Below are positions 24,217-42,601 of a stretch of 64,000 bases of DNA, in pieces. Position 1 is the stretch's first letter; every line of letters begins with the position of its first letter. The DNA is from an uncultured Eubacteriaceae bacterium (lineage in GTDB: Bacteria; Bacillota; Clostridia; Lachnospirales; Lachnospiraceae): assembly GCA_947066895.1 (NCBI GenBank), contig CAMTAA010000002.1:12786-76785 (forward strand). The letters run 5' to 3'. A model generated the notes under the pieces. That model saw only the letters and a program-made list of their open reading frames with translations. It was not told the DNA's origin and ran no database searches. The position numbers and the translations under genes were made by a program.

Positions 24217-24267
24217 CTCTTGGCAGGGGCGTTCTCTGTAGACGAAATGTTTACAGGGAATTTTTTT

Positions 24268-24356
24268 ATGTACACAGGTGTCTCAAGAAACGATGTCAGC
24301 AGAACTGACAGACATTTAGTACGGCGAGTAGAGGAGGCAGCCTTCCCTACTCGATT
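24268..24356 (+). repeat. Family B module, copy B1
   Basis: Begins immediately after a hairpin plus T7 (ctgtagacgaaatgtttacagggaattttttt). ATGTACAC..., hairpin gtcagcagaactgac, then palindrome cgagtagaggagg..ccttccctactcg. Confidence 0.7.
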
Positions 24357-24401
24357 ATAAAAATAGAAAGAACATAACAAATTTTATTCACCATTAGTTT
24401 G

Positions 24402-24439
24402 GGCAGTTATCAAAAGATAAGATAACTGCCTTTTATTTT
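24402..24439 (+). terminator. Strong rho-independent terminator downstream of tRNA-Leu/B1
   Basis: ggcagttatc-aaaa-gataactgcc, then ttttatttt. Confidence 0.8.
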
Positions 24440-24442
24440 ATT

Positions 24443-24492
24443 AAGTCAAAGGAAATTCAGAATCCGCTCCACTACATCCTTGATAGGTTAAA
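24443..24492 (-). repeat. Family C repeat, copy C8 (short form, reverse orientation)
   Basis: Reverse complement reads tttttaacctatcaaggatgtagtggagcggattctgaatttcctttgact. This is the same deletion derivative as C6. Confidence 0.8.
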
Positions 24493-24537
24493 AAAACAAA
24501 AAAAGAGAAATAAAGAATACCTATATTGTGGAAAAAG

Positions 24538-24788
24538 ACAGCCAGAGTATGGCATTGCAGTACTGTGACTTCGGAGGAAAGTTAGAAGCTTTTAGACTTC
24601 TGTCGATTCATTAGGATTTTTTGCCATTCTCGAATGGCAAAAAAAGGGGTGTGTTTAGCCCGCAGCACGGGCGAATTGCACCCCGGTCCGTCCGGTTGGA
24701 TGCATCTAAATTCAGAAGTCTTAGAGCTTCTTACTTTCTGTAGAGCGAAACAGTACTGCAATGCCATACTCTGGCGTCCTCCCCCCAC
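24538..24788 (-). repeat. Family A repeat, copy A3 (reverse orientation, subfamily beta)
   Basis: cagccagagtatggcattgcagtactgtgacttcgg ... ggggtgtgtttagcccgcagcacgggcgaattgcaccccggtccgtccgg ... ctctggcgtcctcccccc. Apical hairpin gccattctcgaatggc. Confidence 0.85.
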
Positions 24789-24895
24789 TTTTCGACTAGG
24801 ATTCCTATATCTTTTCTTTGCAATCTTAGGATTCTTGTGCTAGAATAAAAGCAATAACCTGTTAAACTGGAAAATGCCAGAAAGGACGAAAAAAG

Positions 24896-25231
24896 ATGAT
24901 ATGTAAAGAATGGCAGAGAATGATTCCCGGGTTTTTAGATGATACGTTAGAAAACCAAGAAATGGAAGGCTTTATTCAACATGTACAAACCTGTGAGGAC
25001 TGTTATGAAGAGCTAGAAATTATGTTTATGCTTTCTATTGGTTTACAGGAATTAAAAGAAGAAAGAAATATTTCGTATAATTTTAGCCAGTTGTTGGAGA
25101 ATAAAATACTAGAAGAAGAAATTCGTTTTGAACGGATTCGGCAGATTCGTTCTTTTAACCGGCTGGTCATTATTATTTTGCATATTCTTGTAGGATTGGG
25201 AATTGCATTTCAGATAATAAAATGGATATAA
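24896..25231 (+). CDS. Small zf-HC2 (anti-sigma-factor-like) membrane protein, orphan
   Basis: H-x3-C-x2-C (HVQTCEDC) near the N-terminus and a single C-terminal TM helix. No ECF sigma gene adjacent. Confidence 0.5.
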   Translation: MICKEWQRMIPGFLDDTLENQEMEGFIQHVQTCEDCYEELEIMFMLSIGLQELKEERNISYNFSQLLENKILEEEIRFERIRQIRSFNRLVIIILHILVGLGIAFQIIKWI

Positions 25232-25273
25232 AATAAAGAAAAGGAAAGAATAGGAATAAAAGCGGGAGAAAAA

Positions 25274-40026: not shown

Positions 40027-40160
40027 TTGATTCCTGTATCCATAGAGGTTCGAAAAAGGAAAACATAGAAATTGATTTATGTATCCATAGAGGATCGAGA
40101 AAAGAAAACATAAAAGTTGATTCCTGTATTCATAGAGGATCGAGAAAGGAAACGTAAATT
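40027..40160. repeat. Minisatellite, ~45-nt unit x 3 (ttgattcctgtatccatagaggatcgagaaaggaaaacataaaag) between A6 and inverted A7
   Basis: Units start at 40027, 40072 and 40117. The last unit ends gaaacgtaaattgtgagg. This shares the core GAAAC[AG]TAAATTG with the array at 51485-51790. Confidence 0.85.
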
Positions 40161-40171
40161 GTGAGGCAATA

Positions 40172-40409
40172 CAGCCAGAGTGCTTTAGGGAGACGCTGTG
40201 ACTTCGGAGGAAAGCTAGAAGTTCTTAGACTTCTGTCGATTCTGTAGGATTTTCGGGCACTTGTGCCCGAAAAAGGCACGTGTTTAGCCTCCTGCAGAGG
40301 CGAATTGCGTGCCGGTCCGTTCGGTGGGATGCACGGAAATTCAGAAGTCTTAGAACTTCTGCTTTCTGGAGAGCGGAACACGTCTCCCTAAAACACTCTG
40401 GCGTCCCCT
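40172..40409 (-). repeat. Family A repeat, copy A7 (reverse orientation, subfamily alpha, apical hairpin gggcacttgtgccc)
   Basis: cagccagagtgctttagggagacgctgtgacttcgg ... gggcacttgtgcccgaaaaaggcacgtgtttagcctcctgcagaggcgaattgcgtgccggtccg ... ctctggcgtcccc. Confidence 0.85.
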
Positions 40410-40528
40410 TGGAGTTGAAATCGAATATTGAATATATAAAAAAAATATGCTAAACTATAAAAAGTGATTTTGGTAGAGTAATTGTTTTAACCTATTAACA
40501 ATAATAAAAACGATAAAGGAAATAGAAG

Positions 40529-41152
40529 ATGGAAAGAACCGTATTTTATCCAGATAAAATGTATACTTATATTCGAGGTTATGCTTCTGGGGCAGAGATG
40601 ACACAGACATTAAAGGCACTATCTTTTGCAAGAGAGAAACACGAGGGACAGATGCGTAAGGGAGGAGAACCCTATATTATTCATCCTCTTACTATGGCGT
40701 GCAATGCACTTAGTATTGGAATTAAAGAAGATAATATAATTGCAACGATTTTACTGCATGATGTCTGTGAAGACTGCGGAATTAGTTTGGAGGAACTTCC
40801 AGTAAATGATATTGTGCGGCGAGGTGTAGAATTGATGACATTTCGGGTTATGGAAGGTGAGACAAAAGAGATCGCAAGGAATCGTTATTATAATGAACTT
40901 TTAGAAAATCGGGAAGCGTCTATTACGAAACTAATTGATCGCTGTCATAATGTATCGTGTATGGCGGGGGCATTTTCAAAGGAAAAATTAAAGGCATATA
41001 TTGAAGAAACCAGGCAATATATCCTTCCGCTTCTTCGAAAAGTAAAGCAAAAATATCCAGAAGAGGCAAATGCATTGTTTGTATTAAAATATCATATTGT
41101 CAGTGTAGTAGATTCGATTGATGCAACGATTCAGATATATGAAAAGAATTAG
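40529..41152 (+). CDS. HD-domain phosphohydrolase (RelA/SpoT-like hydrolase domain only; possible small alarmone hydrolase)
   Basis: HD motif ...IIHPLTMA...LLHDVCED. 207 aa. No synthetase domain. Confidence 0.65.
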
Positions 41153-41279
41153 AATAAAAAATTAGAGATAGATTGCGAATAAATTTAGAGAGAGTGGGGT
41201 TATTATTTTGGATAGAGGATTTATGATTTAGATAGAGTTATGATTTTAGATTTTAGATAAAGGAGGAAAACTGTATTTT

Positions 41280-41936
41280 ATGAAAAAATTGTATCAGAAA
41301 AAGGGATTATATGGTTTTGTGGTTTTGGTTTTATTTTGTATAATAGGGATAACTGCTTGTGGAAAAGGGGAGGTGCCTTCTGCAGAAACAGAATCTAGTA
41401 CAGAGGAGTCTTATCTGACAGGGAAGCATCAGATAGAGATTCATGTAAAGGATAAGGGAATTATTTATGCTGAGTTAGATGCAGATAGTGCTCCGATTAC
41501 AGTTACAAATTTTATTCAGCTTGCGGAATCTAATTTTTATGATGGGCTTACTTTTCATCGAGTGATAGACGGGTTTATGATACAGGGAGGCGATCCGCAG
41601 GGGGATGGTTACGGCGGTTCGGATACGAAAATTGTTGGAGAATTTCCGAATAATGGAGTGGATAATCCGCTTAAGCATACACGGGGTGCGATTTCTATGG
41701 CACGTTCTATGATACCGGACAGTGCCAGTTCGCAGTTTTTTATTGTGCATGAGGACAGTCCTCATTTGGACGGAGATTATGCTGTGTTTGGTTATGTTAC
41801 GGAGGGAATGGAGATTGTGGATGCGATCTGTAAAGAGGTTTCTGAGCAGGGGTTGAGCGGGGTGCTGCCAAAAGAGAAACAGCCGGTGATTGAGAGTATT
41901 TTAGTAGTGGAAGCGATAGAAGCAGAAGCGGAATAG
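41280..41936 (+). CDS. Cyclophilin-type peptidyl-prolyl cis-trans isomerase, lipoprotein
   Basis: Signal peptide plus lipobox (IGITACGKG). Cyclophilin core FHRVIDGFMIQGGDP ... SMAR...SQFFI. Confidence 0.85.
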   Translation: MKKLYQKKGLYGFVVLVLFCIIGITACGKGEVPSAETESSTEESYLTGKHQIEIHVKDKGIIYAELDADSAPITVTNFIQLAESNFYDGLTFHRVIDGFMIQGGDPQGDGYGGSDTKIVGEFPNNGVDNPLKHTRGAISMARSMIPDSASSQFFIVHEDSPHLDGDYAVFGYVTEGMEIVDAICKEVSEQGLSGVLPKEKQPVIESILVVEAIEAEAE

Positions 41937-41979
41937 GAAAGGAATGAAAGAAACAGTTAGTAAAGGAAGGGAATAAACA

Positions 41980-42450
41980 ATGAAAATTAGACGGGCGGAA
42001 GAAAGCGATATGGAGGGGATTAATCGGCTGCTGATGCAGGTGTGTCTGGTGCATCATAGAGGAAGACCGGATTTATTTAAGTATGGTGCAAAGAAATATA
42101 CGGATGAACAGTTAAAGGAATTGATTTGTGATGATCAGAGACCTATTTTAGTAGCGGTGGATTCTGAACAGCAGGTTTTGGGTTATGCTTTTTGTGTTTT
42201 TCAGCAGCAAAAAGAAAATAATATTTTAACGGATATAAAGACTTTGTATATTGATGATCTCTGTGTGGAGGAGACGCAGAGAGGACAACATATAGGAAAG
42301 CAGCTTTATCAGGAAGTGCTTGCACTTGCAAGGCAGAATCAGTGTTATAATGTAACCTTAAATGTCTGGAGCTTAAATGAATCTGCTATGAAATTTTATC
42401 AGTCCTGTGGGTTAAAGCCTCAGAAAGTTGGGATGGAAGTGATTTTATAG
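41980..42450 (+). CDS. GNAT family N-acetyltransferase
   Basis: 156 aa. Acetyl-CoA binding motif region VEETQRGQHIGKQLYQ (Q/RxxGxG/A). Confidence 0.8.
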   Translation: MKIRRAEESDMEGINRLLMQVCLVHHRGRPDLFKYGAKKYTDEQLKELICDDQRPILVAVDSEQQVLGYAFCVFQQQKENNILTDIKTLYIDDLCVEETQRGQHIGKQLYQEVLALARQNQCYNVTLNVWSLNESAMKFYQSCGLKPQKVGMEVIL

Positions 42451-42510
42451 TGGAAAAGGGGCTGCTGCAAAATAGGATAGGAATTTATTATTTTGCAGCA
42501 GTCCCTTTTT

Positions 42511-42601
42511 ATGCACATGAATGTTTTAATGAAATAGGTCAGCGGAGCTGACGGACGCCTGAGACAGCGAGTAGGGAAAGTAACCTTTCCTACTCGATTA
42601 G
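42511..42601 (+). repeat. Family B module, copy B4 (terminator of GNAT gene; overlaps last codons of the convergent GH2 gene)
   Basis: Preceded by hairpin gctgctgcaaaata..tattttgcagcag plus T5. ATGCACATGAATG..., gtcagcggagctgac, palindrome cgagtagggaaagtaacctttcctactcg, then attagattttttattttttgg. Confidence 0.7.

Follow-up and report, generated by a model that had tools for sequence, protein, structure and literature searches.

The 64,000-nucleotide stretch of DNA analyzed here (the window) comes from the contig CAMTAA010000002.1 of an uncultured Eubacteriaceae bacterium (assembly GCA_947066895.1, positions 12,786 to 76,785 of the forward strand), and proteins identical to those it encodes occur in uncultured Lachnospiraceae assemblies. 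Among its genes lie several copies of a small structured repeat, family B. The genes around the copies are ordinary chromosomal ones, assigned by Pfam to FtsX, PolA, NAPRTase, ThiM, ThiE, cyclophilin, GNAT, and GH2. The shared module begins with ATG(C/T)A, continues with a long imperfect hairpin (P1) with the apical sequence GTCAGCnnnGCTGAC and a second hairpin (P2) of the form CGAGTAGG-loop-CCTACTCG, and ends in ATT. In a repeat search, the copies B1, B3, and B4 emerge as one 95-nt family with 67–71% identity. The pattern GAGTARR-N6-20-YYTACTCGAT has four matches in the window, all on the + strand, compared to 0 expected from 100 shuffles, and the apical hairpin GTCAGCRGARCTGAC has three matches compared to 0.09 expected. 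The initial annotation had listed four copies, all of which are present where it placed them and on the + strand, with boundaries that we refined; the copies were scored with a covariance model (R1) built from 20 aligned full copies. In the following, we describe the fold, taxonomic range, position, flank motif, mixed tandem arrays, and intragenomic similarity observed for this family, and weigh what kind of element it may be.

B1 (24268-24356, +) consists of AT, P1 (24270-24323), P2 (24325-24353), and ATT. It scores 76.3 bits (E 4.6e-17) with the covariance model, which was run with filters off for all window copies, and its RNA fold has an energy of -31 kcal/mol (z -3.7). It is preceded by a tRNA-Leu(CAA) gene (24134-24217) and by the host terminator that follows this gene (24231-24267, +; hairpin 24231-24261 plus T7, -16.0 kcal/mol), which would have been its target site. 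B3 (35736-35824, +; 73.3 bits; RNA fold -34.8 kcal/mol, z -4.3) sits in the leader of the thiM and thiE genes (ThiM and ThiE by Pfam), between a riboswitch terminator and the ribosome-binding site. The aptamer at 35588-35698 matches the Rfam TPP family with 67.7 bits, and the terminator at 35700-35735 (+; hairpin 35700-35730 plus T7, -19.1 kcal/mol) would correspondingly have been the target. This terminator is conserved in the orthologous thiM leaders of the loci L133 and L135 from other species, and it is therefore older than, and not part of, the repeat. B3 is directly followed by a degenerate tandem copy, B3' (35827-35910, +; 22.2 bits, E 0.0013), which was missing from the earlier list.

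B4 (42511-42599, +; 71.1 bits) has a weakened P1, followed by P2 (42568-42596) and ATT. The host terminator in front of it, its presumed target site, follows a GNAT gene (42456-42510, +; hairpin 42456-42507 with ~20 predicted base pairs, plus T5, -30.5 kcal/mol). The three hairpins upstream of B1, B3, and B4 have no sequence relationship to each other, and the fold energies, for B1 and B3 also the terminator scan, agree with the initial annotation that these copies start right after an unrelated terminator hairpin and T-run. The convergent GH2 gene (42590-44353, -) has its stop codon (42590-42592) within the 3' arm of the P2 hairpin of B4. Together, the stop and the last three codons (42590-42601) lie inside this arm and the ATT tail, and the B4 insertion now provides the end of the GH2 reading frame.

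The remaining copy, B2 (33242-33286, +; 24.8 bits), is internally deleted, with ATGTCAGCAGAA fused to P2 (33254-33283), which is then followed by ATT. It starts 15 nt past the stop codon of the upstream gene and, unlike B1, B3, and B4, has no host terminator in front. TATTTTGGGG lies directly 3' of B2, which is the sole terminator-like structure downstream of the gene at 30789-33227. The proposal that B2 and B4 themselves act as terminators holds insofar as both were flagged as terminator-like by a simple scan, but this property is specific to these copies, as P2 is followed by a T-rich tail in only 6 of 70.

Fold, covariation, and distribution

P1 is composed of an outer and an inner stem, a loop of 11–12 nt that is confined to the 5' side, and a hairpin at the apex. 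The asymmetric internal loop is conserved as A-n-n-G-G-A-A-n-U-n-U-G, and the whole element follows the consensus atGCnCA-stem-AnnGGAAnUnUG-apical hairpin-stem-GCgcgg-CGAGTAGGg...cCCTACTCG-ATT. The 5' end GCRCAG is likewise conserved, as is the final ATT (100%, 98%, and 95% per position). On the + strand, the full copies of the window fold well under their shuffles (z -3.2 to -4.3). In an alignment of 66 copies, 95.4% of the cells are paired, compared to 35–49% when the 3' partners are slid. Double changes are seen in all 27 of the 27 pairs, and there are 277 compensatory cells compared to 78.6 in shuffles. Because G-T pairs outnumber A-C mismatches (60 versus 33), the + strand is the folding strand; this excess gives no distinction between RNA and single-stranded DNA. 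The covariance search proposed in the initial annotation thus revealed a strongly covarying structure and many further copies.

The two hairpins differ in how they are conserved. P1 is conserved in shape only, and the sequence conservation of P2 is partly an ascertainment artefact of the pattern used for scanning; copies detected solely by the model carry the P2 variants CGGGCAGG/CCTGCCCG or CGGATAGGGG/CCCCCATCCG. An extra small hairpin, AAACCGATAAATCGGTT, is found in the apical loop of P1 in two copies (L040 6843-6948 and L096 1653-1749), so this loop tolerates insertions. A tyrosine-recombinase core site, to which an 11-6-11 palindrome would correspond, was considered for P2 and rejected: loop sizes range between 6 and 20 nt, with the stem being extended in compensation, and P2 therefore fits a hairpin and not a duplex site. 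By inspection, the consensus contains no convincing -35/-10 promoter signal. No Rfam family matches B1 to B4, either at the gathering threshold or at E-values up to 10. The only matches at or above the gathering score in the E-value scan were the neighboring tRNA, the TPP riboswitch, and two TwoAYGGAY RNAs, while two weak sub-threshold matches, SpR19_sRNA and mir-8186, fall on the terminator hairpin upstream of B4, with SpR19_sRNA reaching the 5' part of that copy.

The same alignments bear on whether the module could be a family of small-protein genes of ~30 residues starting at the ATG. Such a start is present in 44 of 60 copies, and B1 and B3 give similar 30-residue frames. However, the ATG frame is open for at least 28 codons in only 10 of the 60, compared to 26 and 13 for the other two frames, in-frame stops are scattered, and the copy lengths are not multiples of three. 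A ribosome-binding site is absent, with the T-run of the terminator abutting the ATG, and where B1 and B3 differ in a seemingly synonymous way, the changes are the two partners of compensatory pairs (GTGTCT/AGACAT versus GCGTCC/GGACGC is one example). We therefore concur with the initial annotation in preferring a structured element, and regard a peptide gene as extremely improbable.

Scanning one genome per species with the P2 pattern yielded 120 loci, mostly from Lachnospiraceae. R1 matches 66 copies in the first 100 of these loci and about 10 more clear copies in the remaining 20, plus one in a viral contig outside this set. This brings the number of copies beyond the window to ~75, essentially all of them in Lachnospiraceae genomes. 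A BLAST search of plasmid and phage collections with a consensus copy gave no match, and of the 58 viral-contig loci with the P2 pattern, only one, L172, has a true copy, which probably resides in a prophage. Family B is thus chromosomal. We found no description in the literature of a terminator-associated repeat in Lachnospiraceae.

Clustering the 200 nt upstream of each P2 match revealed five further groups, G2–G6, each with its own structured 5' domain, which in G5 is P1 plus an extra hairpin. In all of them, (A/G)T(T)GCR forms the start, located behind a terminator T-run, and ATCGAGTAGG..CCTACTCGAT(T) the end; solo P2 hairpins are also present. Family B is therefore one branch of a superfamily of non-coding Lachnospiraceae repeats of ~85–140 nt. 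Across the groups, the termini are constant and the interior is exchangeable, which is the pattern of transposon ends.

A second repeat family of the window may belong to the same superfamily. Its copies (709-839, 5489-5619, 7730-7860, 9716-9796, 33339-33508, 36006-36040, and 62052-62182) share the architecture of family B, in which a linker joins a long hairpin to a short one on the 3' side (CGGAT..ATCCG) with ATT(T) behind it, and begin after TTTTA, 60–220 nt upstream of start codons. In L027, one such repeat directly follows a family-B P2 hairpin and TTTT. The window also contains TwoAYGGAY RNAs (Rfam RF01731) at 24570-24745 (+) and 30489-30663 (-), with relatives near 3831-4110, 20285-20548, 35079-35358, 39738-40017, 40143-40380, 51072-51333, and 51752-51989. 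They occur on both strands, often beside short tandem arrays (20105-20284, 35346-35527, 40027-40161, and 51468-51734), so that TwoAYGGAY behaves like a dispersed repeat in the window and not like a single regulatory RNA. The NAPRTase–thiM spacer (35058-36070) measures 1011 nt in the window compared to 295 nt in L135, and the extra length is due to B3, B3', a D14-type repeat, a TwoAYGGAY-like copy, and a tandem array of 65 nt, all arranged around the intact TPP riboswitch.

Placement behind intrinsic terminators

In the 60 nt upstream of every copy, we nearly always find an unrelated GC-rich hairpin and a T-run that abuts ATGCRCA. When terminator context was defined as a hairpin of -7 kcal/mol or better abutting a T-rich tail, 45 of 58 element copies (78%) had such a structure in front, compared to 56 of 3000 random positions (2%), 49 of 462 unoccupied intergenic TTTAT sites of the same loci (11%), and 19 of 95 unoccupied intergenic TTTTTAT sites of these loci (20%). 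Several of the 13 copies that fail the test, including B4, are preceded by long hairpins that are invisible to it. The preference for the 3' side of intrinsic terminators, which had been proposed from the window copies, is thereby supported by a test on ~70 independent copies of other genomes. The distance from hairpin to insertion was uninformative as a measure, as folding pairs the T-runs with upstream A-runs.

The immediate flank adds a motif that was absent from the initial annotation. In 42 of 64 copies, GCRCA is preceded by exactly TTTAT, and among the same 64, 55 have an A at position -2 and 59 a T at position -1. On the other side, there is no fixed base behind the 3' ATT (G 24, A 15, T 14, and C 4). 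An unoccupied terminator-plus-TTTAT site is present in the window at 9905-9944, where the hairpin CGGAGAGG..TCTCTCCG is followed by TTTTTAT; this hairpin is P2-like (weak model matches of 17 and 8 bits).

The upstream open reading frame (ORF) is co-oriented with the element in 44 of 51 cases, and the downstream ORF occurs in either orientation (35 versus 20), with its start often within 60 nt. Several copies follow regulatory terminators and have a ribosome-binding site 18–60 nt further downstream. In Rfam searches of 18 loci, the feature immediately in front of a copy was an FMN riboswitch in L004, a SAM riboswitch in L011, a T-box leader in L073, and a tRNA in L048. Together with the copies of the window, this means that gene-end, tRNA, and attenuator terminators all serve. 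The commonest upstream neighbors are methyl-accepting chemotaxis genes (10 ORFs in 9 loci, among them L108, L110, L114, and L117); their median distance to P2 is 111 nt. Their frequency probably reflects the many monocistronic paralogues with strong terminators.

One way to account for such placement is a mobile element for which the terminator hairpin itself is read by machinery other than a cleavage-motif system. This could be a retroelement route like that of group IIC introns, for which the target is a stem-loop and T's in single-stranded DNA. It could also be reverse transcription in which the template is switched to the 3' end of a terminated transcript, or a recombinase for which folded hairpins are the substrate, in the manner of integron attC sites. 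The contrast between 78% of the element sites and 11–20% of the TTTAT and TTTTTAT controls speaks for such a reading, as do the use of the element's own P2 hairpin as a target (see below) and an orientation that follows the terminator and not the direction of replication. The placement of group IIC introns is similar, as they sit 3–11 nt downstream of a terminator stem-loop and T's, on its 3' side and in its orientation (PMC1702495). The likeness to group II introns suggested in the initial annotation thus extends to the target, but not to the element itself. Group IIC introns are ribozymes of at least 400 nt with domains I–VI and usually a reverse transcriptase ORF, whereas family B has only two hairpins and none of these. 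Its 90 nt leave no room for a ribozyme, and neither Intron_gpII nor any other Rfam family matches at E-values up to 10. Domain V of group II introns carries a bulge and an AGC triad, both of which are missing from P2. Furthermore, position 1 is A and not G in ~80% of the copies, neither a reverse transcriptase nor an integrase turned up close to any copy in the examined loci, and the TTTAT flank and 3' ATT fit a cleavage-motif system better. A group II intron remnant is accordingly rejected on the basis of the sequence and the Rfam null result, and hairpin-reading machinery in the wider sense strikes us as unlikely.

Similarity, decay, and the case for transposition

Copies within a genome can be unusually alike. 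Among ~2300 copy pairs, the two most similar, and five of the top nine, are found within one genome, with identities of 94.5, 93.3, 91, 91, and 90% for the within-genome pairs compared to a median of 70%, and these paired copies lie behind unrelated terminators. Tandem arrays mix subfamilies, with the next copy starting right after the P2 hairpin and ATT of the previous one (CTCGATT followed directly by G(C/T)RCA in 14 of 23 matches of a junction search), which means that the element's own hairpin and ATT act as a target. Many copies are truncated, deleted, or degenerate, and those that have decayed have mostly kept both ends and lost the middle (B2, L133, L134, and L066).

Comparison of related species gives a similar picture. 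In the thiM leaders of the window and of two relatives, with ThiM identities of 83% and 79%, the copies have decayed in different ways, and a further relative (L135; ThiM 74% identical) has no detectable copy in a leader that is unalignable. In this last species, there is no model match in 20.8 kb of synteny in which the window has B2, B3, B3', and B4. Two insertions of other kinds were observed in the related species. In L138, inverted repeats of ~130 nt (16280-16400 and 17130-17250) flank an ORF of 167 residues without a Pfam match, which lies between GNAT and GH2, the place of B4 in the window, and looks like an unrelated insertion. In addition, a resolvase and an LRR/choline-binding gene are inserted between an MVP-like gene and NAPRTase.

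These comparisons are relevant to the possibility that family B is first of all a functional RNA module kept by selection, with dispersal being secondary. Such a module could be a cis element acting in read-through transcripts or 5' untranslated regions (on stability, processing, or translation), or a small RNA scaffold for a protein, for example, a miniature omega-RNA-like guide scaffold with the 3' flank as guide. The strong covariation, the conservation of the GGAA loop and of P2 across genera, the excess of G-U over A-C on the + strand, and the fixation of copies within the window's species are all in line with this, as are the copies found shortly before ribosome-binding sites behind regulatory terminators. 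Furthermore, PATEs (palindrome-associated transposable elements), which are small gene-less derivatives of mobile elements, often encode omega RNAs (PMC10055086). However, a position after a terminator minimizes transcription, there is no promoter signal in the consensus, and the neighbors are unrelated host genes with no conserved class among them. The many truncated, deleted, or degenerate copies and the absence of copies across the syntenic 20.8 kb of the related species likewise disagree with selection for a function, and so does the scarcity of the element's own U-tail (6 of 70 copies). We therefore consider a primarily functional RNA possible, but rather unlikely.

The reading that we favor, which we give about an even chance of being correct, is that family B is a non-autonomous, strand-specific mobile element of the ends-only kind associated with IS200/IS605 (PATE- or REP-like), with an added preference for terminators. 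Transposition, the single-strand mechanism, and the enzyme are all inferred, and mobilization in trans by a Y1 HUH transposase is favored because of the asymmetric ends, the absence of inverted repeats and target duplication, the 3' subterminal hairpin and end motif, and the insertion in one orientation 3' of a pentanucleotide. Indeed, neither terminal inverted repeats nor target duplications are found in ~70 inspected copies, and the ends GCRCAG and CTCGATT are unrelated to each other. [quoted passage not shown] REP/RAYT elements depend on the same enzyme family as IS200/IS605 (PMC3733652).

According to this model, a Y1 HUH transposase whose gene lies elsewhere in the genome would excise one strand and insert it again as folded single-stranded DNA. 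P2 and ATT would constitute the right-end recognition and cleavage site, with TTTAT in the role of the transposon-adjacent motif. An insertion immediately behind a terminator would spare both the terminator and the downstream gene, and copies would therefore persist and decay by internal deletion. They may also ride in the 5' untranslated regions of read-through transcripts, as in the thiM leader.

Several observations weigh against this model. No clean empty site was found among same-species contigs and the thiM relatives, and B1, B3, and B4 are fixed in every contig seen of the window's species, in which the family appears to be old, judging from copies that are ~72% alike. No autonomous partner was found via orphan 5' ends or ORFs near orphan copies, nor by clustering 2234 ORFs from the 120 loci and searching recurrent or nearby families against Pfam; the families recurring close to the elements are host genes, chemoreceptors among them. 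A tblastn search of 1.56 Mb of collected loci with an IS200 TnpA query gave no match, and hence no Y1 transposase homologue. The targets of IS200/IS605 elements are short motifs and not hairpins, whereas the hairpin adds a 4- to 7-fold preference over TTTAT or TTTTTAT alone. This may result from selection after insertion, since other intergenic insertions hit promoters, or from true recognition of the structure. Tandem copies follow CGATT and not TTTAT. The GC skew is positive on the element strand in 47 of 55 loci, with seven strong exceptions, but is inseparable from gene orientation, and the orientation of the element tracks the upstream gene without extra replication bias. Finally, the long covarying P1 with its conserved loop exceeds the known needs of a Y1 transposase.

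These points leave room for a terminator-seeking system of a new kind instead of a passive ends-only transposon, in which the hairpin and its U/T-tail are read directly or P1 and P2 serve as a miniature guide-RNA-like scaffold for a nuclease or transposase encoded elsewhere, with the flank next to it as the guide. Direct reading could make use of the 3' ends of terminated transcripts or of the terminator folded in single-stranded DNA. We judge such a system to be quite improbable, less so than a peptide gene but somewhat more so than the hairpin-reading machinery discussed above. If it were true, intrinsic terminators would be a dedicated safe harbor for an RNA-shaped Lachnospiraceae superfamily that includes G2–G6 and possibly the D7 and D14 repeats of the window.

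Relation to known elements and significance

Of the known systems, PATEs such as those of ISGst2 from Geobacillus stearothermophilus resemble family B in being small and gene-less, in having neither inverted repeats nor target duplication, and in inserting in one orientation 3' of a 4–5-nt motif, which here is the same TTTAT as that of ISGst2. They also share a subterminal hairpin, a conserved 3' end motif, multiple copies within genomes, and a Firmicute host. In contrast to PATEs, family B has no tnpA/tnpB element with matching ends in the 1.56 Mb searched, is strongly tied to a preceding terminator hairpin, and forms tandem copies that abut CGATT. In addition, its P1 is long and covarying with no conserved stem sequence, and its length is only ~90 nt.

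REP and BIME sequences, which are linked to the RAYT Y1 transposases, are likewise high-copy extragenic hairpins found 3' of genes and contain a GTAG motif. They probably act as folded single strands, occur alone, in arrays, or fused, and can affect mRNA ends. However, the GTAG (or CGTC) of REPs is an unpaired tag on one end of a palindrome of 20–40 nt (PMC3733652), whereas the GTAG of family B is paired inside P2. REPs have been described mainly outside Firmicutes (none in PMC3733652), and family B differs further by its additional 55-nt domain and fixed position after terminators.

Firmicutes also harbor MITE-like repeats, such as bcr1 of the Bacillus cereus group and RUP, BOX, and SPRITE of Streptococcus pneumoniae, which are small, structured, intergenic, and multi-copy, and, like family B, probably transcribed within neighboring mRNAs. 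In the case of bcr1, there is an association with a TTTAT target. Unlike family B, these repeats have terminal inverted repeats and/or target duplications, and no terminator preference has been reported for them. A classical MITE is for this reason rejected, as terminal inverted repeats with a target-site duplication were absent from the ~70 inspected copies.

Taken together, the description that suits family B best is a new variant of the single-strand transposons of the ends-only kind, one that is associated with terminators, widespread in Lachnospiraceae, and absent from Rfam. Landing at terminators, including the attenuators of riboswitches and T-boxes, has so far been known mainly for group IIC introns, and would here be combined with a TTTAT flank resembling that of IS200/IS605 elements. 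With its many natural variants, the family lends itself to studies of how a hairpin and T-run are read, be it by a single-strand transposase or by something new. Copies inflate intergenic regions and 5' untranslated regions, where there is a risk of annotating them as small RNAs, small ORFs, or terminators by mistake, and they put stable hairpins between attenuators and start codons. If our reading is correct, the Lachnospiraceae, a dominant family of the gut, would carry an unannotated superfamily of structured mini-elements, which in the window amounts to about one copy per 13–16 kb.

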